From an uncultured Selenomonadales bacterium (GTDB lineage Bacteria; Bacillota; Negativicutes; Selenomonadales; Selenomonadaceae): 48,152 nucleotides of DNA. Positions 428 to 48,152 of this stretch are shown here, one piece after another. Made by a program: the position numbers and the translations under genes. A model generated the notes under the pieces. The model saw only the letters and a program-made list of their open reading frames with translations, made no database searches and was not told the DNA's origin. Each line of letters opens with the position of its first letter. The first letter of the stretch is position 1. Location of the stretch: contig CAMVJN010000001.1 of assembly GCA_947167825.1 (NCBI GenBank), positions 1-48,152 on the forward strand, in the 5' to 3' direction.

Positions 428-1741
428 TCAATATCGCGCCAATGCGTCGTATTCTTCTTCTTCCGGCTCGTACTGACTAACACCCGCAAATACAGGCATT
501 GCAAATGTTAAGGCGAGACTGTCGGCATAGTCCGGGCTTTTGCCGATCTTCTCTTTGATTTTGTCTTTAGGTTCCAGAATGATTTTCCCGTTCCGTGCAA
601 ATTGATACTCGACAACAGACAACTCGCTTTTGAGTGTCGGCTCGTTTGGCAGCGCCCCGCCGTCTTCCAGCCATTTGCGAAGCTTGAAATACATTTCCGC
701 CCGTAGGTTGGCGTATCTGTCCGTATCCTGCGGAGAGCCGCCGAAATTGACCTCTGTTACCCGGTAATGCAACTGCCGCACACGGTCAACCACGCCCGCG
801 CCCATAGCTCCAACGTCTACAAACACGGCCTGCGGGTTATACGTGTTTATCGCGTTGATAAGAACGTCAGCCGCCTGCATCGTGTCTAATCCCCTGTGCA
901 CTTGCTGACGCTGACACCATAGCCCCTTACGCACGGTCAACACGGTAGCATCATCACCAAAACGCGCCACATCAAGGCCGAGAATCACGGGAGCGCCTGC
1001 AACGTCAGCTTCCGTCAATTCCCGCTTGCTTGCCGCCGTTACAAGGTCAATCGGAATCACAACATCAGACGCCGACGCGCTGAAATCGCAGTATAATTCC
1101 TGCCGTATTGCCATAGGCGTCATGTCTTTCTGCATATCCTCCAACTCGTCCGGCGGAATAATGCCCGTATCAGCGACGGTATACAAGCAGGAAAACCATG
1201 CAGGATCGTTTAAAGCCCGTTGATAGGTCTCGTAAAATTGATTCTGCCCTTTCGGCGTCCCGATGAATACCGCCCAGCCCTCGCGGTCAGACAATGCAGG
1301 GCGTAAAACCTCGTCCCATAACTCTTTTTTAATCTGCGCGTACTCGTCCAATATTGCCCCATCCCAGTATCCGCCGCGCAGTGCGTCGGGATGGTCAGCG
1401 CCGATAATGTAGATTCTTGCGCCGCTTCTTGGTGGATATGCGCTTGGCAATTCTATATACAATTCGCTTTCATTCACGCGCCGCCCCGGAATCACGCTGG
1501 AATAATATTTCAGGTATTCCCAAGCAATCATTTTCGCTTGATTGCGAAACGGTGCTACATATGCATAACGCGGAGCCTCTCGTTTGCAGAGCAGCGCCTG
1601 CTTAAGCATTTGATTAACTGTGCCGACAGTTTTCCCGAAGCGCCTGTGACAAACGAGCACTGCGAAACGGTGAGAATCCAACGCCGGGTGTATCACGCTT
1701 TCCCAGATAGGCCGCGGCGTGTATGGTATTTTTATACTCAT
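428..1741 (-). CDS. terL: Terminase large subunit.
   Basis: This 437-aa ORF has a Walker-A-like CHRRFGKT and a nuclease-half GLDVARFGDD. It sits after terS with an ATGA overlap and is paralogous to 47074..48152. Confidence 0.9.
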   Translation of the reverse strand: MSIKIPYTPRPIWESVIHPALDSHRFAVLVCHRRFGKTVGTVNQMLKQALLCKREAPRYAYVAPFRNQAKMIAWEYLKYYSSVIPGRRVNESELYIELPSAYPPRSGARIYIIGADHPDALRGGYWDGAILDEYAQIKKELWDEVLRPALSDREGWAVFIGTPKGQNQFYETYQRALNDPAWFSCLYTVADTGIIPPDELEDMQKDMTPMAIRQELYCDFSASASDVVIPIDLVTAASKRELTEADVAGAPVILGLDVARFGDDATVLTVRKGLWCQRQQVHRGLDTMQAADVLINAINTYNPQAVFVDVGAMGAGVVDRVRQLHYRVTEVNFGGSPQDTDRYANLRAEMYFKLRKWLEDGGALPNEPTLKSELSVVEYQFARNGKIILEPKDKIKEKIGKSPDYADSLALTFAMPVFAGVSQYEPEEEEYDALARY

Positions 1742-4631: not shown

Positions 4632-5126
4632 ATGCTGGATTTTAAAAAAATGAAAGCGACGCTTGAAGCCGAAAAAAATCGGCTGAAAATGGTAATCGAA
4701 GCGCAAGAAGCAGTTATCCCGTATCTGGAAAAATTTGACGGAAAAATCATCAACAAAAAACTGGTTGATTATATCAACGAACTTGAGCCAATCCGCGCAT
4801 ATTTTCACGGCGAAAAAGAAAGAAAGCAACTGGTCATATACCACAAAAATTTACCATACAATTACAATACCGTTTTGTGGGAATTTGTAGATATGGTATC
4901 AAATGACAAACGATTCGATCACAAAAAATTTTCCGCTGTCATGCGGAGGAGAATCCTAAATACCAGAGCCGACTTAACCGCCATAGAATCCGATCTTGCA
5001 GACGGCGAAAAACGCGCACAAGAATTTAACTATGTGCAGCAGTATTATATCCAGCTTGCAAAAGGCTTTTCATACTTCATCCGGGGGGAATACGATCATG
5101 ATTTTAAGATTGGCTGGATAGGATAA
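4632..5126 (+). CDS. Hypothetical protein of 164 aa, visibly AT-rich relative to its neighbours.
   Basis: AAAGGAGG forms the RBS, and the composition is K/N/Y-rich with many A/T runs. I recognise no family. Confidence 0.65.
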   Translation: MLDFKKMKATLEAEKNRLKMVIEAQEAVIPYLEKFDGKIINKKLVDYINELEPIRAYFHGEKERKQLVIYHKNLPYNYNTVLWEFVDMVSNDKRFDHKKFSAVMRRRILNTRADLTAIESDLADGEKRAQEFNYVQQYYIQLAKGFSYFIRGEYDHDFKIGWIG

Positions 5127-5161
5127 CGGGACGAATTGTCTGAATCCGACTGGGCAAAACG

Positions 5162-5686
5162 CTAAAAAACCCGAACGACCTGGGCCTGCGCCGCGCATTG
5201 TATGGCGTAGGCCCTTATGTCGTCCAGGACTGCATAATATGTCCGCTCCGCAATATGCAATTCGTCCATTGTTATGACGCGGCTTTTCCGCTGTCCCTCG
5301 TATCGTCGGCGGAATATTGCATTGCGAATCGAATCCTCACGACACCAGACGCGAACCGCCCGAACCACCTGCAGCCACCGCTCCGGCCACTCGACCGGGC
5401 GGCCGTCCACGAAAACCTTTGGAACCTCCGCCGCGTGGCGTATCGCCTGGGAAGCCGTCGGGTCCGGGATGTAACTATGCCCGGTATGTTCGCCGCTTAA
5501 ATTACTACTGGGCGACAGCTTCGCTTCCTTGACCGCCTCGGCAATCTGCCGCTCGTGTCTGATCATGTACTCAATTTTTCTGATATTCGCGTCTCGTGAT
5601 TGTCTCTGCAATATCTCTCGCCTCCATAGACGGCTCTCTCGCCGTCTTTTTTTGCGTACGAATATAATCATCGTGTCATGGTACAA
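5162..5686 (-). CDS. Putative late-gene transcriptional activator (RinA/ArpU-like, with a sigma region-4-like HTH).
   Basis: The C-terminal ITMDELHIAERTYYAVLDDIRAYAIQCAAQ looks like an HTH. The gene sits at the end of the early operon, upstream of terS. The true start is uncertain. Confidence 0.5.
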   Translation of the reverse strand: MYHDTMIIFVRKKRRRESRLWRREILQRQSRDANIRKIEYMIRHERQIAEAVKEAKLSPSSNLSGEHTGHSYIPDPTASQAIRHAAEVPKVFVDGRPVEWPERWLQVVRAVRVWCREDSIRNAIFRRRYEGQRKSRVITMDELHIAERTYYAVLDDIRAYAIQCAAQAQVVRVF

Positions 5687-5713
5687 AAGCGGCTAAAAAT
5701 GGCGTTTCCGCGA

Positions 5714-5818
5714 CTAACGGCTACCCTTAAACATTTCTGATAATGCAACAACGATAACAGCACCGACAAACAGCGCAATCATTTCTTGCCAGTCAATATG
5801 AATTGATAATTCAATCAT
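5714..5818 (-). CDS. Tiny membrane peptide of 34 aa.
   Basis: GGAAGGGGTG lies upstream of the ATG, and the core LFVGAVIVVAL is hydrophobic. Confidence 0.3.
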   Translation of the reverse strand: MIELSIHIDWQEMIALFVGAVIVVALSEMFKGSR

Positions 5819-5940
5819 CAGCCGCACCCCTTCCCGACTTCTACAATCAGCCTGTCAAGATACCACCGCGCTGATTGCCTCGATTGTTTCGATTCGCCCC
5901 ATACAGTAATGCGCCGGGTGATTTACGTTATCATTCTCCA

Positions 5941-18474: not shown

Positions 18475-19491
18475 ATGAGAAACCCTAACGGCTACGGCTC
18501 CATCTACAAACTCCACGGCGCACGCCGAAAGCCTTTCGCCGTCTGTGTCACGGCAGGCCGGAAACCGGATGGCCGTCTCGTGCGGAAATATATCGGCTAT
18601 TACGAGACGCGGCGGGACGCGCTTTCTGCCCTTGCAGCCTATAACGATAACCCGTTCGACGTTCGCGCTCGTGACGTTACTCTTTTGGAGCTATGGGAGA
18701 AGTGGAAAGAGTATCGAACCGGGCGCGGGAAGAAGCTGCCGGACAACTACAAAAACGCCTTTCGTCATTGCGCCGCTCTCCACAACAAACGATTTATAGA
18801 CATAACCACAGCGCAAATCCAAGCCACTGTGGATAACGTATCATCCATGCCACATACCGCCGTCCATGTTCGGATGGTTTTCGGGCTGCTATATAAGTAC
18901 GCTAAAATCATAAACCTTACAGCGTCAAACCGAGCGCAAGGCGTAGAAGTCCCCAAACTCCCAAAAAGCACAAAGCACAAGCCTTTTTCCGCGGACGAAT
19001 TGAAAAAGCTATGGCAAGACACAGACGACTTCGGCGTCCAGCTTGCCCTTGTCTATTGTTATACCGGCCTGCGTCCATCCGAGCTAATAGAAATGCGCCG
19101 CGAGAACGTACACCTGAAAGAAAGATATATGATCGGCGGAATGAAAACCGAGGCGGGAATCAACCGCTGCATACCCATAGCGGAAAAGATTGTCCCGCTG
19201 ATTGAAGGCTTTCTGGCCCGCCCGTCCGAATATCTATTGACCGCCCCGGACGGGACACACCCGCAGGATTTACAAGCGTTGACCTATAGATATTGGAGGA
19301 AGTCAAAATCCAAAATTGTCCTGGACCACTACCCGCACGACGGACGCCACACTTGCGAAACAATGCTGGACAATGCCCACGTCGCAAAGCGCACAATCCA
19401 GCTCATAATCGGCCACGCCGGGGGAGACGTTGACGCTTTATATACCCACAAGACGCAAGCCCAGTTAATACAGGCGATCAACAAGATATAA
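18475..19491 (+). CDS. int: Tyrosine recombinase / phage integrase.
   Basis: It has TGLRPSEL, HDGRHTCETML, IGHAGG and LYTH catalytic-region motifs, and an N-terminal SAM-like domain. Confidence 0.95.
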   Translation: MRNPNGYGSIYKLHGARRKPFAVCVTAGRKPDGRLVRKYIGYYETRRDALSALAAYNDNPFDVRARDVTLLELWEKWKEYRTGRGKKLPDNYKNAFRHCAALHNKRFIDITTAQIQATVDNVSSMPHTAVHVRMVFGLLYKYAKIINLTASNRAQGVEVPKLPKSTKHKPFSADELKKLWQDTDDFGVQLALVYCYTGLRPSELIEMRRENVHLKERYMIGGMKTEAGINRCIPIAEKIVPLIEGFLARPSEYLLTAPDGTHPQDLQALTYRYWRKSKSKIVLDHYPHDGRHTCETMLDNAHVAKRTIQLIIGHAGGDVDALYTHKTQAQLIQAINKI

Positions 19492-19699
19492 TTGCATACA
19501 CGTTGCATACAAAAAAGCCCGCAGTCTCAATGACTACGGGCTTTCGTCGTTAATCTATTTTTAATTTATAGCAGTTTTCCGTTATTTCTGTAAACAACTG
19601 CAACTACTGTATTCTCAAGCGGTCAAGGATATTTTTTCTTGTTCGTTATTCGTTCTAAAACGGGCTTCTTTTTTCTTCGTTGCATACAAGCTGCATACA
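19492..19699. other. attP-like junction with paired TTGCATACA direct repeats flanking an AT-rich core.
   Basis: TTGCATACA occurs at 19492, 19503 and 19680, and CTGCATACA at 19691. The 12-mer CGTTGCATACAA is exact at 19501..19512 and 19678..19689. Confidence 0.45.
19515..19552 (+). terminator. Probable terminator after int.
   Basis: AAGCCCG and CGGGCTT form a 7-bp stem around a 15-nt loop, followed by a weak T tract (TCGTCGTT). Confidence 0.5.
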
Positions 19700-19703
19700 A
19701 ATT

Positions 19704-19740
19704 AACTTAAAAAATGGGGATGGTTTTCGCCATCCCCATT
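19704..19740 (-). terminator. Rho-independent terminator ending the prophage B accessory operon.
   Basis: An 11-bp stem pairs AATGGGGATGG with CCATCCCCATT, followed by TTTTTT on the minus strand. Confidence 0.8.
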
Positions 19741-19743
19741 CTC

Positions 19744-20136
19744 TTACATCTTGGAAAGCATTTCTTTGATGATTTCCTTATCGTGTCCCTGCGCTTCCTG
19801 CATCAAGCCTTCGAGTTTGTCGCGCATACCGTCCCGGCTGTAACCGTCACGGCTGACAAACTGTCCGTTCATGCCGCGCCCTCTGCGATAGCTATTGCCC
19901 TCGTCGTAGGAACCGCGATAGCTCATGCCGTCCTCGGAATATCCATCCATCGGACGACGGAAGCTGTTACCGCCATCGAAGCGTTCCATAGCTTCAATCG
20001 TTTTGATTTTTGTAATGCCGCTGACCGCAGCTTTCGCGGTTTCAACGGCGCTCTTGTCTTTGAAGTGTCCCTGCTCCGCATATTCGCGAAGAACCTCATG
20101 GAACATCTCGCAGATTTTGTCCATAACCTTGTCCAT
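19744..20136 (-). CDS. Hypothetical protein with a helical N-terminal half and a G/R/Y/S/D-rich low-complexity middle.
   Basis: This 130-aa protein contains GGNSFRRPMDGYSEDGMSYRGSYDEGNSYRRGRG. Confidence 0.65.
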   Translation of the reverse strand: MDKVMDKICEMFHEVLREYAEQGHFKDKSAVETAKAAVSGITKIKTIEAMERFDGGNSFRRPMDGYSEDGMSYRGSYDEGNSYRRGRGMNGQFVSRDGYSRDGMRDKLEGLMQEAQGHDKEIIKEMLSKM

Positions 20137-20148
20137 CGTATCACCCCT

Positions 20149-20616
20149 TTACCGCGTAATCGCCAAGTCAGGCCGCGAGAAGATGATGTTCGCGTCCTGT
20201 ACCAAAATTGGCTGATTGCTTGTGTTCCGAACCGTCACCGTCTGGCAGCATCCCTGGAAAATCGCCGCGTTGATTGCACGGCTCACATTGAAATACTGCT
20301 CCACGGCTGCGGGCGTTACAATCATTGTCGAAGCCGGAAGCGTCGCGCCGTCGATAGCGATTGCCAAGGAGATCGCTTCAACCGTTCCGCCTGTCGGCAC
20401 GGCAATGTTTGCACCGAAATCCACAAGATAATTCGCGGTCTTTCCGCGCTGGCACTGACAGCCGAAAATGTTCGGGACGTACCCGCGCAAGAGGAAGCTG
20501 CCCGTGTCGTCGCGGTGAAGAATCAAGCCGCGATTGCACGGAACCGGGCTTTCCGTGAATACAACGGATTCCCCCGGATTTACCGTTTGAATATCAACGT
20601 TGCTGTACTCTGCCAT
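20149..20616 (-). CDS. Hypothetical beta-rich, Cys-containing protein. A possible BclA-C/C1q-like fold is a guess only.
   Basis: The ATG at 20616 follows GGGGGTG. The product is 155 aa. Confidence 0.65.
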   Translation of the reverse strand: MAEYSNVDIQTVNPGESVVFTESPVPCNRGLILHRDDTGSFLLRGYVPNIFGCQCQRGKTANYLVDFGANIAVPTGGTVEAISLAIAIDGATLPASTMIVTPAAVEQYFNVSRAINAAIFQGCCQTVTVRNTSNQPILVQDANIIFSRPDLAITR

Positions 20617-20631
20617 GTACGACACCCCCAA

Positions 20632-21483
20632 TCAGGCGCCGCAACCACAGCCATAATTTACAGGGGCGCAGCAATTCGGATTTTGTACCATATACGCAGG
20701 TACAGGATTCGGATTCAGACGCGCCAAAAGATTCGCCGTCTGCGCCTCGTTGTTCGCGAGAATCTGCGCCGTCTGCGCGGTCTGACTTGCCGCCCCCTTC
20801 AAAGCTGCAATCTCCGCCGCTTGGTCGGCGACCTTCTGCTTGAAGCTGTCAAGTTCAAGCTGGCACAGCTTGTCCATTACGGACTGGAAGCCCTGCCGCT
20901 GGCCATCCAAGAGCGCCTGCGTGTTTCGCGTCTGATTCTCGATAACGTCACGGATTCCATTGGACACCGCCGCACGGTCAGCACAAGCCTCGGTCGCCAC
21001 GGTATATTTGAGGTCAGCCGTCGCCGCTCGGTTCTCGCAGCAGCACTGCTGCAACGCCATCGCAAGGCTGTTCATCTGCTGATTCGTCGCGCTCTGATTC
21101 GTGTAAAGCGTGCTGTTGATAGCGTCCTTCGCGCCCGTAATTGCCTGTGCCGTCGCATACTGGCCGTTTGTGACTGCCGCCGTAATTGCCGCATCGCCGG
21201 AGCAACGAGCGACCGCCGCATCCGCAAAGCCGTTGCCGACCTGCGACTGCAAAGCCGCAATGCCGGACTGCGTGGCCTGCTGGTCAAAGCCGCGCTGCAT
21301 ATCAGCAACCGCGCCGTTGTTGCCAAATCCGCCGTTGCCCCATCCGCCGCCAAAAGCAAACAGGAACAGGATAAGCACCCACCAAGCGCCGTCTCCGCCC
21401 CAGCCGAAGCCTCGGCCACCGTTGCCGCCGTTCAGTACAGCCGCAACATCCGCGGCAGTCATGCCGCCGTCTGTCATACTCAT
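20632..21483 (-). CDS. Gly-rich membrane-anchored coiled-coil protein with Cys clusters.
   Basis: It has the N-terminal GGNGGRGFGWGGDGAWWVLILFLFAFGGGWGNGGFGNNG, an internal QQCCCENR and the C-terminal NPNCCAPVNYGCGCGA. GGAGGT forms the RBS. Confidence 0.7.
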   Translation of the reverse strand: MSMTDGGMTAADVAAVLNGGNGGRGFGWGGDGAWWVLILFLFAFGGGWGNGGFGNNGAVADMQRGFDQQATQSGIAALQSQVGNGFADAAVARCSGDAAITAAVTNGQYATAQAITGAKDAINSTLYTNQSATNQQMNSLAMALQQCCCENRAATADLKYTVATEACADRAAVSNGIRDVIENQTRNTQALLDGQRQGFQSVMDKLCQLELDSFKQKVADQAAEIAALKGAASQTAQTAQILANNEAQTANLLARLNPNPVPAYMVQNPNCCAPVNYGCGCGA

Positions 21484-21526
21484 ATTGATTACCTCCGATT
21501 GATTTATTTATATCTGGCCAGATATA

Positions 21527-21703
21527 TCACGCTTTGCGCCCCATGATTTGCGAGGCCATTTGCGAAAGCTGATTGTATTGCTGTTGTGTCATTTGCCCGC
21601 TATTCAAAAGTTCCTGCACTGTTTGGCGCGGGTCCTTCTGCATCTTGGCAAAATTCGCGGCGAAGTTCTGAAACTGTTGGAGCATATTCATAGGGTTATT
21701 CAT
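21527..21703 (-). CDS. Small Q-rich protein of 58 aa.
   Basis: It is too short for the ORF track. An ATGA overlap couples it to the upstream gene, and the product starts MNNPMNMLQQFQNFAANFAKMQKDPRQTVQELLNSGQMTQQQYNQLSQMASQIMG. Confidence 0.45.
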   Translation of the reverse strand: MNNPMNMLQQFQNFAANFAKMQKDPRQTVQELLNSGQMTQQQYNQLSQMASQIMGRKA

Positions 21704-22026
21704 TCCTTCTTCGCCTCCCCCAACGCCTCTAAAACCTTGTTCAGTTTATCCTGCAAACTGGAAAATTCTTCCCGCGTGACAGTGCTTCCGTCCGCCGGAG
21801 CGGCCTGCACGATTTCCTTAAACTCAAACTTCCGCATTTGTTGAGGCAGCCCGTTCGGGGCCGTGGTTTTGAGCCAAAAAATACAGGCGTCAAAATCAAT
21901 CAACGCTACCGTCGAGCCAGCGGCTACCGGGTACATTTGCGCTCCGCCCTCGCCGTTGACCGGCACGAGCATAATCTGATTTTGCGTCTGCTGCATAGGG
22001 TTAAACATATTATTAGGGTATGCCAT
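21700..22026 (-). CDS. Hypothetical protein.
   Basis: This 108-aa ORF directly follows the stop of the upstream gene. Confidence 0.6.
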   Translation of the reverse strand: MAYPNNMFNPMQQTQNQIMLVPVNGEGGAQMYPVAAGSTVALIDFDACIFWLKTTAPNGLPQQMRKFEFKEIVQAAPADGSTVTREEFSSLQDKLNKVLEALGEAKKE

Positions 22027-22410
22027 TTATACATCGTCCTCCTTCGACCAATAATAGATTGGCGTCTCTGCTTCGCTGTCCCATGTATCGTAATGATCAC
22101 CGTCAACGACTGTGACGACGTGAGAGCCTGTGCCTAAAAGGAAGCGCCCCGAAGGATGATCGCGGCAAAACTCGGCTACGGTGTAGCAGTCCGGGCACGT
22201 ATCCGGCAGTGTGTGTCGTTTATAGCCGTGCTCCTTCAAGAACGCTCCCCAAACAGGATTAGAAGAAGGCATATCAAACATTTTGTACCCCTGCGTCACA
22301 ACGCCAAGGTACGCAGTTTGCCAGTCAATATCCATCAGTTTCGATATTGCGCGAACCACGCAATCACCGACGATATTCTGCGCCGGGTTTGGATTGTATA
22401 AAACAAACAT
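22027..22410 (-). CDS. Hypothetical protein with a possible papain-like Cys/His arrangement.
   Basis: It has GDCVVRAIS near the N-terminus and GSHVVTVVDGDHYDTWDS near the C-terminus. It is the first gene after the terminator at 22471..22501. Confidence 0.6.
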   Translation of the reverse strand: MFVLYNPNPAQNIVGDCVVRAISKLMDIDWQTAYLGVVTQGYKMFDMPSSNPVWGAFLKEHGYKRHTLPDTCPDCYTVAEFCRDHPSGRFLLGTGSHVVTVVDGDHYDTWDSEAETPIYYWSKEDDV

Positions 22411-22470
22411 ATTGTCTCACCCGAAGGGAATTATCTCATATCAAATACGATCTAAAGTCTCTGTAAAGAC

Positions 22471-22501
22471 AAGAAAAAAGGCGGCTCATTTCGAGCCGCC
22501 C
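22471..22501 (-). terminator. Rho-independent terminator separating the lysis-side genes from the accessory cluster.
   Basis: GGCGGCTC and GAGCCGCC form the stem, followed by TTTTTTCTT on the minus strand. Confidence 0.75.
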
Positions 22502-22731
22502 GTTAGTGCTTTCCCTATTATAATGTATGCTTCGTGCAATCGTGTTTTTACATAGTTCATACCGCAATGCAGATCAAGCGAGATTTTTACGACTGTCTCG
22601 GCTTTGAGTATATGCCGATTCAATATTTCTTCCTGCTCCGGCGTTAGCTTTGCCTCGTACACAATCGCATTGTACTCGCTCCGCGTCGCGCATTTCAAAT
22701 ACGCACGCGCCGCTTTGCAGTCTGGGTTCAT
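22486..22731 (-). CDS. Small HTH protein (sigma region-4/LuxR-like, tentative).
   Basis: It contains LTPEQEEILNRHILKAETVVKISLDLHCGMNYVKTRLHEAY. Confidence 0.5.
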   Translation of the reverse strand: MNPDCKAARAYLKCATRSEYNAIVYEAKLTPEQEEILNRHILKAETVVKISLDLHCGMNYVKTRLHEAYIIIGKALTGGSK

Positions 22732-22746
22732 AAAAATTCCCCCTCA

Positions 22747-23211
22747 TTATTTTGCTACCGCTACCCCTACGGCAACAAGGCACAAGACTTCCCATAGATT
22801 TCTTTGGTTCCGCAGCCGCCCCTCAATTTTGTCCCGCTCCTGCTCGGATTTCTTGAATGATTCCCGCGCACTCTGCAACTCTGCGTTGGCTGTCCTCAAC
22901 GATTCGTCTAGCCGCTTCGTTTCCGTTTGCAGCGCGGCCAACTGCACTTTCAGCGTTTCCAGTTCTTTCCTCGATTCGCTCAATGACAACGACGCTTCGT
23001 TCAAGTCCAGATTGGATTCGTTCAGCAGATTCAACAGCTCGTTGTTGTTCTGCTCCAGCGCGGTCAAGTGATTGCTCAACGTCTCTAGCTCTGTCTCGCT
23101 GATTTGATACATCCGGCTCTCGGAGCAGATACCAACAGACGGCCAGAATAAAAATAAAAACGCCGCAATAAGCGACGCACTTAAAAACTTTGTTTTCTTC
23201 CACATCTTCAC
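22747..23211 (-). CDS. Secreted or anchored coiled-coil protein with an N-terminal signal sequence and a C-terminal TM segment.
   Basis: The N-terminus is KFLSASLIAAFLFLFWPSVGICSES, followed by a long heptad-like region. The C-terminus is LWEVLCLVAVGVAVAK. Confidence 0.65.
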   Translation of the reverse strand: MKMWKKTKFLSASLIAAFLFLFWPSVGICSESRMYQISETELETLSNHLTALEQNNNELLNLLNESNLDLNEASLSLSESRKELETLKVQLAALQTETKRLDESLRTANAELQSARESFKKSEQERDKIEGRLRNQRNLWEVLCLVAVGVAVAK

Positions 23212-46663: not shown

Positions 46664-47074
46664 TCATCCCTTCCTTCCGATCGCCTTTCGGATATTCCCA
46701 CGAATGCGCTCACTATACCCTTCGCTTTCCGGGTCCCCGTAAGAACCCGCCGCATGCCTCGTACTGACAGCACCACCAAGTTTTGACGCCTCCACCCTTG
46801 CGGCAGCGTCCACGTCGTCAAAATACATTTTTTCCTTGTCGGCTTTTAATTTATTGTATTCTTCATCCGTATATAAACTTTCCCCGCTCTCCTCGTCCCA
46901 CCGAGTAGGCGGTTTATACTTTGTTGGCTGTCTCGTTGCGTGTGCCGTTTCCAACACTTTATTTGCTGTTTTTTTGTACTGATCAAATGATAACGGGCCG
47001 CTTTTATTTGTCTTGGAAAATGCGTCGTAATACTTTCGCACTGTTTCGTCGTTATATCCATAATACCAGCCCAT
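46664..47074 (-). CDS. Hypothetical protein present only in prophage B.
   Basis: This 136-aa ORF has no counterpart between terL and the small ORF in prophage A. Confidence 0.55.
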   Translation of the reverse strand: MGWYYGYNDETVRKYYDAFSKTNKSGPLSFDQYKKTANKVLETAHATRQPTKYKPPTRWDEESGESLYTDEEYNKLKADKEKMYFDDVDAAARVEASKLGGAVSTRHAAGSYGDPESEGYSERIRGNIRKAIGRKG

Positions 47075-48152
47075 TAATATTCCTCCCTTATATAATCTGC
47101 CAGTGGGTCATATTGTTCTTCGTTCTCGTCCCGGTATGCGTCCCACTTGGACGGTATATGTATCGGCATGGCAAACGTCAAAGCTAGACTGTCAGCCAGG
47201 TCAGGCGACTTGCCAATCTTTTCCTTGATCTTCGCCTTCGGTTCCAGGATGATTTTGCCGTTGCGGGCAAACGAATACTCAACGACGGAAAGCTCGCTCT
47301 TGAGCGTCGGCTCGTTCGGCAGCGCCCCGCCGCCCTCAAGCCACGCACGAACCTTAAAATACATCTCCGCCCGTAGGTTGGCGTATTTCTCCGTATGCTG
47401 CGGAGAGCCGGCAAAATTGACCTCCGTCACGTTGTAATGGAGCTGCCGCGCCCGGTCAATGACCGCCGCCCCCATGGCTCCAACGTCAACGAACACGGCG
47501 TCGGGCTTGTATGTGTTGATTGCATTTATCAAAACGTCCGTCGCCTGCATCGTGTCGAGCCCTCGGTATACGGCGGGCTTGTAGCAGTGTAGCCCCTTAC
47601 GGACAGTCAGCACAGTGGAATCGTCGCCGAATCTTGCAATATCCATACCTATTATAATAGGCGCCCCGGCTACGTCGGCCTCGGTCAGCTCTCTCTTGAC
47701 TGCCTCCGATACCAAGTCAATCGGTATCACCACGTCAGACGCCGACGCGCTGAAATCGCAATATAGCTCCTGCCGGATTGCCATAGGCGTCATGTCACGC
47801 TCCATGTCCTGCAATTCGTCTGGCGGTATGATGCCCGTCTCGTCAACGCGGTACAGGCATGAGAACCACGAGCTATCCGTCAAAGCTCTCTGGTACATAT
47901 CAAAGAACTGGTTTTGTCCCTTGGGGGTCCCGATGAACACAGCCCAGCCTTCGCGGTCAGACAACGCAGGGCGAAGAACCTCGTCCCATAGCTCTTTTTT
48001 AATCTGCGCGTACTCGTCAAGGATTGCCCCATCCCAGTATCCGCCGCGCAGGGCGTCGGGGTGATCGGCGCCGATGATGTATATTCTCGCGCCGCTCCTT
48101 GGTGGATATGCGCTTGGCAATTCTATATACAATTCGCTTTCATTCACGCGCC
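47074..48152 (-). CDS. terL: Terminase large subunit, with its 5' end truncated by the window edge.
   Basis: It is colinear with residues of about 90-437 of the 428..1741 product, and the reading frame is open to the window end. Confidence 0.9.
   Translation of the reverse strand, partial: RVNESELYIELPSAYPPRSGARIYIIGADHPDALRGGYWDGAILDEYAQIKKELWDEVLRPALSDREGWAVFIGTPKGQNQFFDMYQRALTDSSWFSCLYRVDETGIIPPDELQDMERDMTPMAIRQELYCDFSASASDVVIPIDLVSEAVKRELTEADVAGAPIIIGMDIARFGDDSTVLTVRKGLHCYKPAVYRGLDTMQATDVLINAINTYKPDAVFVDVGAMGAAVIDRARQLHYNVTEVNFAGSPQHTEKYANLRAEMYFKVRAWLEGGGALPNEPTLKSELSVVEYSFARNGKIILEPKAKIKEKIGKSPDLADSLALTFAMPIHIPSKWDAYRDENEEQYDPLADYIREEY

Follow-up and report, generated by a model that had tools for sequence, protein, structure and literature searches.

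A conserved and apparently mobile six-gene cassette in phages of gut and rumen bacteria, with a predicted papain-fold protein and a predicted C1q-like jelly roll

We analyzed a contig of 48,152 nucleotides (nt) from an uncultured Selenomonadales bacterium (CAMVJN010000001.1; this whole stretch is called the window below), in which six minus-strand genes, designated P1 to P6, run from position 22410 to 19744 and are tightly packed between two strong terminator hairpins. To judge from gene order and sequence comparisons, this cassette is a mobile block that is carried by phages of several kinds and is read mostly with their late genes. Our favored reading of what it encodes is a membrane-tethered assembly of P4 and P5 that is made late, is matured by P1 and P2, and is self-contained within an autonomous, mobile phage cassette. 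We would give this reading a probability of only about 35%.

The gene P1 (22027-22410, 127 amino acids [aa]) abuts P2 (21700-22026, 108 aa), which overlaps P3 (21527-21703, 58 aa) by 4 nt. After a gap of 43 nt there follow P4 (20632-21483, 283 aa), P5 (20149-20616, 155 aa when counted from the ATG used by its homologs) and P6 (19744-20136, 130 aa), separated by 15 nt (P4/P5) and 12 nt (P5/P6). All six are on the minus strand and, since they abut or overlap with the P3/P4 gap as the sole exception, they fit a single operon. An earlier note on this DNA, made from the sequence alone, had described six co-oriented genes of these sizes between strong terminators. This description holds: all of the open reading frames (ORFs) were found, and the flanking hairpins are the two strongest sites with a hairpin followed by a T-run within 18-24.5 kb of the window.

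The earlier note also regarded the genes as a self-contained module, and proposed looking for their co-occurrence in other genomes. We gathered loci by P5 alone, 16 from species-representative genomes and 80 from IMG/VR, and scanned all of their ORFs with iterated hidden Markov models, one for each cassette protein. Among 101 P5-bearing loci, 71 have the complete set in the same order, P1-P2-P3-P4-P5-P6, which bears out the idea of a module. In two further loci the halves of the cassette are swapped, 11 loci lack only a recognizable P3, and the remainder are truncated at contig ends. Some apparent fragmentation is explained by recoding of TAG to glutamine in large phage contigs (59-205 kb), where in-frame TAG codons in the P4 and P5 genes fall exactly at positions occupied by Gln in homologs (locus L003, 9257-10465; also L030, L031, L036, L044 and L059). 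The fixed order, the near-obligate co-occurrence and natural fusions of P1 with P2 together argue that P1-P6 is a functional unit.

Among the carriers of this unit are temperate phages of podovirus-like type, siphoviruses that encode a DNA polymerase of their own, large phages with TAG recoding, and Butyrivibrio phage Ceridwen, which is a lytic isolate. The same six-gene block is present in a prophage on the Vescimonas fastidiosa chromid, which was the sole find when plasmids were searched for the cassette. According to the genome records, the hosts are in part diderm (Selenomonadaceae, Anaerovibrio) and in part monoderm (Butyrivibrio, Blautia, Christensenellaceae, Vescimonas). The location of the cassette also varies. 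It follows the lysis genes and lies beside the integrase gene in the window, in L025, L056, L064 and L076, and in the Vescimonas prophage, and it lies between tail and lysis genes in L054, L057, L058, L061 and L085. A large set of phages, which have genes for a DNA polymerase, a helicase and a YonO-like RNA polymerase, carries it at varying points among the packaging and head genes: it can separate an HNH/TerS-like pair from the gene for the large terminase (TerL), or TerL from portal, or it can lie upstream of the HNH gene or 3' of the capsid gene. It is found between the portal and capsid protein genes in Dulem virus 35, and between a YomU-like tail tube gene and the tape measure gene in TAG-recoded phages, e.g., L003.

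The gene upstream of the cassette has the same orientation in 63 of 70 loci, and in 43 of the 70 it is at most 30 nt away, which leaves no space there for a promoter or terminator. At the other end, 61 loci have a gap of more than 30 nt, and 43 of these have a terminator-like hairpin 3' of P6. Because the cassette usually abuts a co-oriented upstream gene, the earlier note's proposal of lysogenic conversion does not generalize; the sites among packaging, head and tail genes and the virulent appearance of some carriers point the same way. The cassette proteins of the temperate podovirus-like lineage and of the polymerase-encoding siphovirus lineage are about as similar between the lineages as within them, with ratios of 1.03-1.26; for P5, identity is 64% between lineages and 66% within. 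Such lineage-independent similarity argues against parts that are obliged to fit one particular capsid or tail. We also considered a foreign origin of the cassette on the basis of its composition, but its GC content at third codon positions (GC3) is inside the phage's range, and the idea was rejected.

Scans of P1-P6 against Pfam, NCBIfam, PHROGs and PADLOC matched only PHROGs of unknown function, for five of the six proteins: phrog_3754 (P1), phrog_21718 (P2), phrog_22984 (P3), phrog_16490 (P4) and phrog_20016 (P5). P6 has no match in these four libraries and none in the PDB. In agreement with the earlier note, the products are Cys-rich or of low complexity, and unlike the profiled families of virion, lysis and lysogeny proteins. 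Cysteines that are 80-100% conserved occur in P1, P4 and P5, and none occur at conserved positions of P2, P3 or P6. No signal peptide was found in any of the six proteins.

P1 seems to be a minimal enzyme of the papain fold, as predicted from its AlphaFold2 model. The model has a predicted local distance difference test score (pLDDT) of 92 and shows a small alpha+beta fold with Cys17 at the start of a helix and with His97 and Asp108 on strands. These three residues are 97-100% conserved across homologs, i.e., in effect invariant, and they agree with the papain-like Cys/His pattern previously seen in the sequence. The top Foldseek match is Josephin-2; C39 peptidase domains of ComA and PCAT1, UfSP2 and deubiquitinases are also found, with TssM and viral tegument-like deubiquitinases lower. 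All of these matches are weak, though consistent with each other. P1 is small and, in its model, has its Cys at a helix start with His and Asp on the following strands, an order of secondary structure that would suit a C39- or Josephin-like member of clan CA. Unlike C39 domains, it is not fused to a transporter, no transporter is encoded in any of the loci, it has an additional CPxC motif, and its fusion partner is P2. P1 has no match in Pfam or NCBIfam, and searches of PDB sequences with the single sequence or with a profile yielded nothing meaningful.

The CPxC motif (residues 72-75, window 22186-22197) is kept in around 90% of P1 homologs and hints at a redox or zinc site beside the Cys/His/Asp triad. 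The surrounding segment, TCPDCYTVxEFC, locally resembles the CPHC active-site segment of glutaredoxin, and this resemblance is not significant. Two natural fusions of P1 to P2, P0417 (272 aa) and P0465 (290 aa), point to a physical partnership of the two proteins, as far as domain fusion is a guide; the P1 domains of both lack CPxC. A profile search of 1.84 billion representatives revealed no informative foreign domain fused to P1, only the P1-P2 fusions and one tandem P1, in which the P1 domain is duplicated (P0498, 299 aa). A seeming P1-P4 fusion (P0338) looks like the result of a deletion or an assembly artefact and was set aside. In alignments, P2 has a Q/N/P/Y-rich N-terminus, a conserved beta-rich domain of around 60 aa and a C-terminal helix. 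A Pfam scan of 31 P2 homologs, one by one, was negative, as was a search of PDB sequences.

P4 begins with a conserved N-terminal motif that is followed by Gly-rich flanks around a single hydrophobic helix (residues ~33-45). Residues 57-255 contain no proline, are rich in Ala, Gln, Thr and Asn (22% Ala, 13% Gln) and include length-variable repeats with insertions and deletions. Around ten conserved cysteines occur in CCC, CC and CxC clusters, and the C-terminal tail is rich in Pro and Cys (PxPAYxVxNP-Cys). The earlier description of P4 as Gly-rich with Cys clusters is therefore apt. The N-terminal motif is of two types: type 1 has the pattern L-S-A-A-D-V-A-A-V-M-x-G, and the other type, MVMPVAPMYGG, is found in approximately one third of P4 proteins. 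Searches of PDB sequences with P4, by single sequence and by profile, yielded nothing meaningful. P3, detected in 80 loci, is Q/N/M-rich and probably helical, with conserved residues P4, P25, G36, Q40 and Q42. P6, found in 99 loci, has a helical N-terminus and a conserved C-terminal helix according to its alignment, and between them a variable G/R/Y/S/D low-complexity tract, noted earlier, that is probably disordered. In one Selenomonadaceae prophage from a metagenome-assembled genome (L007, 4197-6403), the P4 gene is split by an ORF of 331 aa (4863-5858) with a GIY-YIG-like N-terminus, so that a homing endonuclease or an intron has probably inserted there.

P5 is the most conserved protein of the cassette, with a mean pairwise identity of 63%. 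By structure prediction, it is a stand-alone C1q/TNF jelly roll whose closest relatives in fold are the C-terminal domain of BclA (BclA-CTD) and ExsF/BxpB. Its AlphaFold2 model (pLDDT 80.4, predicted template modeling [TM] score 0.76) is a compact, ten-strand, jelly-roll beta sandwich in which residues 21-60 have low confidence. This prediction agrees with the earlier view of P5 as beta-rich and Cys-containing; all of its predicted structure is beta, and five cysteines are conserved. Foldseek finds 81 matches in the PDB at an expectation value (E) of at most 1e-3, led by 9h38, 7r1m, 8d02, 9h3d and 1wck, with TM-scores of 0.6-0.73. The best solved neighbors are F-BclA-CTD, ExsFA, BxpB, ExsF and BclA (E of 1e-6 to 1e-5). 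The closest structures overall are in BFVD, where stand-alone proteins of 130-143 aa from uncultured gut phages have TM-scores of 0.73-0.90 and identities of up to 30%; these "BclA-like" proteins are themselves predictions without a functional anchor. P5 has no Pfam or NCBIfam match. When PDB sequences were searched with P5 by phmmer and by profile, only ankyrin repeats and GabT were returned, and no BclA, ExsF or C1q protein.

How might these proteins work together? P4 would serve as a tether and rod, with its hydrophobic helix in the cytoplasmic membrane and a long helical region of variable length, and its cysteine clusters would cross-link chains or bind metal. P5 would be the Cys-bearing, C1q/BclA-like partner of P4 and would probably be trimeric. 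This idea is modeled on the trimer that ExsF (BxpB) forms in the Bacillus exosporium, which docks fibers by accommodating the N-terminal peptide of BclA or F-Anchor in clefts between its subunits (PMC12357932). P1, together with P2, would process or couple the components, and a candidate substrate is the conserved segment of P4 that precedes the Gly-rich hydrophobic helix. P3 and P6 could be low-complexity cofactors. The products would be assembled in the cytoplasm and would act at the membrane, at lysis or later. Anaerobic Firmicutes tend to keep cysteine out of exported proteins; given this tendency and the lack of signal peptides, the Cys-rich parts are probably cytoplasmic until lysis, which, combined with the late-operon context, suggests that they act when the lytic cycle ends or afterwards. 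Control of the cassette, in the lineage of the window, would be exerted by its own promoter and terminators and by U1, a small helix-turn-helix protein. The analysis shows the six-gene unit, its mobility, its setting in late operons and the modeled folds of P1 and P5; the parts of this reading that we infer are the physical complex, the substrate of P1, the membrane topology and the physiological role.

A possible elaboration, which we put forward more tentatively, is that the papain-fold enzyme primes a Cys-knotted, membrane-tethered helical protein or couples it to a C1q-like trimer, so as to produce a structure resembling an exosporium nap or a spike. This structure would be produced in the cytoplasm of the infected cell and deployed at lysis, and its role would depend neither on the virion type of the carrier nor on the envelope type of the host. 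It might help to control membrane rupture or, once released at lysis, influence what becomes of the progeny in the gut.

Like ExsF/BxpB, P5 is a stand-alone C1q/TNF jelly roll of around 155 aa (TM-score 0.66-0.72), and its gene adjoins that of the fiber-like P4, which bears a short, conserved, partly Pro-rich hydrophobic N-terminal motif, as in the BclA/ExsF pair. Like exosporium proteins, the cassette products are Cys-rich, lack signal peptides and would be made in a cytoplasm that is later lysed. However, P5 has only 10-14% identity to BclA/ExsF and no match to their family models. Moreover, P4 is non-collagen, is taken to be helical and has a hydrophobic membrane helix, and the carriers are phages whose hosts are largely non-sporulating.

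Several observations weigh against our favored reading. The docking of P4 to P5 is an analogy with BclA/ExsF, and P5 does not co-vary with the type of P4: its identity is equal within and between the N-terminal and C-terminal types of P4 (difference 0.004-0.008). In general, the pairwise identities of one cassette protein correlate only weakly with those of another (Spearman -0.05 to 0.42), which implies that genes have been swapped between cassettes and that co-evolution of partners is not demonstrated. The fold matches of P1 are not significant (best E 0.066, TM-score 0.44-0.49). P1 may also act independently of the cassette, since homologs stand alone in Bacillus Tsamsa-like phages and in GBK2. 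The terminators and the sigma-70-type -10 element in the window would also permit expression from a prophage. With regard to P4, no double-glycine leader was found when ten N-termini were compared to NCBIfam at E<=10, charges that flank the hydrophobic helix show no bias and thus give no call of topology, and a clear 3.5-residue heptad signal is absent, so the rod is proposed from composition. Finally, the P5 profile matches ankyrin chains in the PDB over residues 31-86, with E of 4e-9 on a chain of 24 repeats, and this stretch spans the least confident part of the model, residues 21-60. There is no Pfam Ank match and the remainder of P5 is confidently beta, so we interpret the ankyrin matches as probably a motif-level resemblance that adds up over many-repeat chains.

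It is important to consider that P4 and P5 might instead be accessories of the virion, e.g., a head or neck fiber or a capsid decoration, with P1 as a maturation protease. This explanation, which we consider unlikely, would account well for a cassette that is co-oriented and often translationally coupled with packaging, head or tail genes, and for the sites that it occupies in Dulem virus 35 (portal/capsid protein) and in L003 (tail tube/tape measure). C1q-like heads are frequent on phage fibers, the GC3 of P4 and P5 (0.67-0.69) is like that of capsid and portal genes, and depositors have labeled crAss-like homologs as "spike" or "viral fiber". However, the capsid and tail proteins of the podovirus-like, siphovirus and very large carriers are unrelated, so co-adaptation of a virion part to them would be expected, yet P5 is 64% identical between lineages and none of the six proteins follows the lineage of its carrier. 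The high conservation of P5 also makes it unlike a receptor-binding head. In addition, P4 has a strongly hydrophobic helix, no structural PHROG family was matched, and there are three phages in which the cassette comes after the lysis genes: that of the window and Ceridwen, where a terminator lies between, and the Vescimonas prophage.

The position of the window's cassette leads to another doubtful alternative, that the cassette is a moron, i.e., a lysogenic-conversion locus, which would encode a membrane or surface structure expressed from the prophage for superinfection exclusion or adhesion. The signals around the window's cassette fit such a locus. The upstream intrinsic terminator (22479-22501, minus strand; 10 pairs, 7 of them GC, and a T-run; RNAfold -18.3 kcal/mol) overlaps the stop codon of U1 and is kept in L056, L057, L058, L060 and L061. 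It is followed on the same strand by an imperfect palindrome, GTCTTTACAGAGAC (22457-22470), that is conserved in related loci, and then by the extended -10-like element TGAGATAAT (22430-22438), 19 nt upstream of the ATG of P1, and by a ribosome-binding site, GGGTGAG (22416-22422). The closing terminator (19709-19744, minus strand) has 15 pairs and a T-run (RNAfold -22.9 kcal/mol). No -35 element is present at the canonical distance from TGAGATAAT. A lone promoter match carries little weight. However, the extended -10 element, which had been pointed out in the earlier note, is shared as TGnNATAAT, with its spacing, by four related loci (L056, L057, L060 and L061); there, too, a terminator and a GTCTTTGCAAAGAC-like sequence precede it, and GGGTGA follows as the ribosome-binding site.

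The palindrome is perfect, as GTCTTTGCAAAGAC, in L056 and similar in L057 and L061, and it is a possible regulator-binding site. We found no operator that the cassette promoter would share with other parts of the phage, since the palindrome is single-copy in the window. The gene U1 (22486-22731, minus strand) encodes an 81-aa protein with a sigma-70 region-4-like helix-turn-helix, according to weak matches to Sigma70_r4_2 and to a PHROG of sigma factors, and is the last gene of the window's lysis/late unit. It is immediately upstream of P1 in 16 loci, all within the window-like lineage, and is a candidate for a cassette-associated regulator. When U1-P1 intergenic regions were compared (window, L007, L008, L010, L015, L025 and L026), the spacer of one sub-lineage had the palindrome and the extended -10 element, and that of another had two direct repeats, TAGCG-N-TTTT. 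The palindrome and these repeats could be the binding sites of a dedicated regulator.

Sequence signals for an own promoter and terminators, as expected of a moron, are present in the window's lineage, whereas family-wide the 43 of 70 cassettes mentioned above abut their upstream gene. Promoter/terminator insulation and U1 are, on this comparison, features of the window's lineage. The location at a prophage end, near attP and the integrase gene, also favors a moron, as does the location of the cassette at the end of the Vescimonas fastidiosa prophage and the predicted membrane protein, P4. The late-region moron of HK97, gp15, encodes an inner-membrane exclusion protein and is a precedent. Like such morons, the window's cassette has its own -10-like element and terminators, lies between conserved modules, encodes a membrane protein and varies in position. 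However, it has six genes instead of one or two, is in most phages merged into late operons, and is found in apparently virulent phages too. Most carriers have no insulation of the cassette from late genes, many have their own DNA polymerase and no integrase in the 20 kb fetched, and Ceridwen has been observed in the lytic cycle only (Ceridwen paper, which has no virion proteomics). Exclusion that is specific to a receptor or envelope is also a poor fit to hosts that range from diderm to monoderm and to P4 homologs that extend to phages of Bacteroides and a Methanomassiliicoccales virus. No match to PADLOC-DB was found for P1-P6 or U1 at E<=1. In summary, taken as a genetic element, the cassette of the window is moron-like in its behavior, and its parts resemble known folds only.

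The earlier note had placed the cassette at the end of a prophage, next to an attachment site. The second part of this claim is plausible. On the flank of the cassette opposite to U1, the plus strand encodes an integrase (18475-19491) and an XRE repressor, and the likely attP region (19491-19699), between integrase and cassette, has two pairs of tandem TGTATGCAAC-like direct repeats at its flanks. There are 7 such matches in the window, compared to 2.25 expected by chance, and four of them are at 19491-19511 and 19679-19699; they are probably candidate arm-type sites of the integrase. As for the first part, the contig is an unintegrated phage genome that was assembled circularly, and not an integrated prophage. 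An exact repeat of 55 nt joins 1428-1482 to 48098-48152, within a longer region (495-1482 versus 47165-48152) that is 78.6% identical. The large terminase gene is whole at 428-1741 (minus strand), and a second copy at 47074-48152 (minus strand), 79% identical, is truncated by the contig end. The contig looks like a circular genome whose assembly continued into a related strain variant.

Elsewhere, the window is taken up by a podovirus-like late region that encodes terminase, portal, protease or scaffold, major head, tail and internal virion proteins as well as a protein of 2262 aa; a tape measure gene was not found among its products. Upstream of the cassette are a holin-like gene, an Amidase_3 endolysin, a coiled-coil protein with a weak spanin match and then U1. 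The coiled-coil protein (22747-23211, minus strand; 154 aa) starts with a signal-like segment whose last residue is Cys, continues as a long coiled coil and finishes in a membrane helix; its PHROG match, to Rz-like spanins, is weak. It could be a unimolecular spanin, judging from this layout, and this would imply a diderm (Negativicutes) host.

Proximity to lysis genes, found in many lineages, raises the further idea that P4 is a primed membrane-active protein. In this quite unlikely scenario, a C39-like P1 trims the N-terminus of P4 and exposes a hydrophobic peptide, which then acts as a lysis accessory like a holin, fusogen or bacteriocin. The nearest folds of P1 do include the C39 domains of ComA and PCAT1, although these matches are below significance, and type-1 N-termini resemble the leader pattern LSxxELxxIxGG, by eye only and with no result from a tool. 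In T4 holin T (class III) and in the i-spanin Rz, a short N-terminal tail precedes a single membrane helix, behind which lies a large, Cys-bearing C-terminal domain. In outline P4 is built alike, and the cassette is often beside lysis genes, but P4 has no sequence or profile similarity to them. Models of leaders and bacteriocins fail on the P4 N-termini even at the permissive threshold given above, the MVMPVAPMYGG type lacks the type-1 motif in about a third of P4 proteins, and the cassette is not accompanied by an ABC transporter, an immunity gene or an outer-membrane lipoprotein partner. The absence of such a lipoprotein from the cassette, and the occurrence of the cassette in phages of monoderm hosts (Butyrivibrio, Blautia, Vescimonas), also distinguish it from spanins. 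Moreover, holin-like, amidase and spanin-like genes are already present elsewhere in the window. Bacteriocin-like or known defense activity, which the earlier note had entertained, thus gains no support from the leader scan or the PADLOC scan.

P1 alone might be of interest to the phage, as a deubiquitinase-like or host-directed peptidase for host take-over or counter-defense, with the other genes as loosely linked passengers. The fold matches to Josephin-2 and, at lower rank, to UfSP2, TssM and viral tegument-like deubiquitinases agree with this idea, as do the weak identity correlations among cassette genes. P1 homologs that stand alone are found in Bacillus Tsamsa-like phages, in early regions where a Ser/Thr kinase gene and an Ocr-like gene are neighbors, and also in GBK2 and Lak megaphages. 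We nevertheless consider this improbable, given six genes in fixed order with near-obligate co-occurrence, the P1-P2 fusions, five remaining products of structural or low-complexity character, and the location of the cassette in late rather than early regions.

Lastly, a module that alters the spore surface of the host, as the earlier note had suggested, is highly improbable: the fold-level echo of exosporium proteins in P5 stands (F-BclA-CTD, ExsFA, BxpB and BclA), and spore coat and exosporium proteins have a similar Cys-rich, low-complexity composition, but hosts such as Anaerovibrio lipolyticus (DSM 3074), Selenomonas and Butyrivibrio do not sporulate, P4 has neither GXY collagen-like repeats nor an exosporium leader, the 155-aa P5 is likewise free of such repeats, no family was matched at the sequence level, and the fold is just as common in phage fiber tips.

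More remote versions of the cassette are also found. Homologs of P4 extend to crAss-like phages, to a phage of Bacteroides uniformis and to viruses assigned to Methanomassiliicoccales. In the crAss-like phage and the B. uniformis phage (L105, 4521-7005; L106, 4503-7748), the P4 homolog is followed by a Cys-bearing beta protein with a weak match to P5 (E 4e-4), a coiled-coil protein, a small R/D/Y-rich protein that matches P6 (E 1e-4) and a small HExxH protein. For the Bacteroides version, Pfam did not bear out a depositor's label of "PolyVal metallopeptidase", and only the HExxH motif was seen. If the HExxH protein is a protease, a proteolytic partner would be a recurring component of the cassette. 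In a virus assigned to Methanomassiliicoccales (L107, 5878-6759), a lone P4 homolog lies beside the reverse transcriptase of a diversity-generating retroelement and an integrase. A separate observation concerns the polymerase-encoding group, where several paralogous genes lie around TerL (L091, 10906-15067, and related loci); the ELYHYGVKGMKWGVRK motif at the N-terminus is common to them, and their C-termini vary.

Within the profile libraries and the limited literature that we searched, no described functional counterpart of the cassette was found; the literature search brought up only general papers on decoration proteins. Conserved phage cassettes that lack a known function are common, and this one belongs to large families: there are at least 7,977 relatives of P4, 5,972 relatives of P5 and approximately 2,500 P1 clusters at 50% identity. 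Cultivable carriers exist, namely Ceridwen, Bacteroides phage C3_41T2LP and the prophages of A. lipolyticus DSM 3074, Butyrivibrio sp. INlla21 and V. fastidiosa MM35, and handles for experiments are provided by Cys17 of P1, which is the candidate catalytic residue, by the predicted fold of P5 and by the P1-P2 fusion. Even if the function proves to be an ordinary one, such as a fiber or a lysis accessory, several thousand hypothetical proteins could gain an annotation. As a conserved, mobile and lineage-independent unit, the cassette implies a general and previously undescribed benefit to phages of the gut and rumen.

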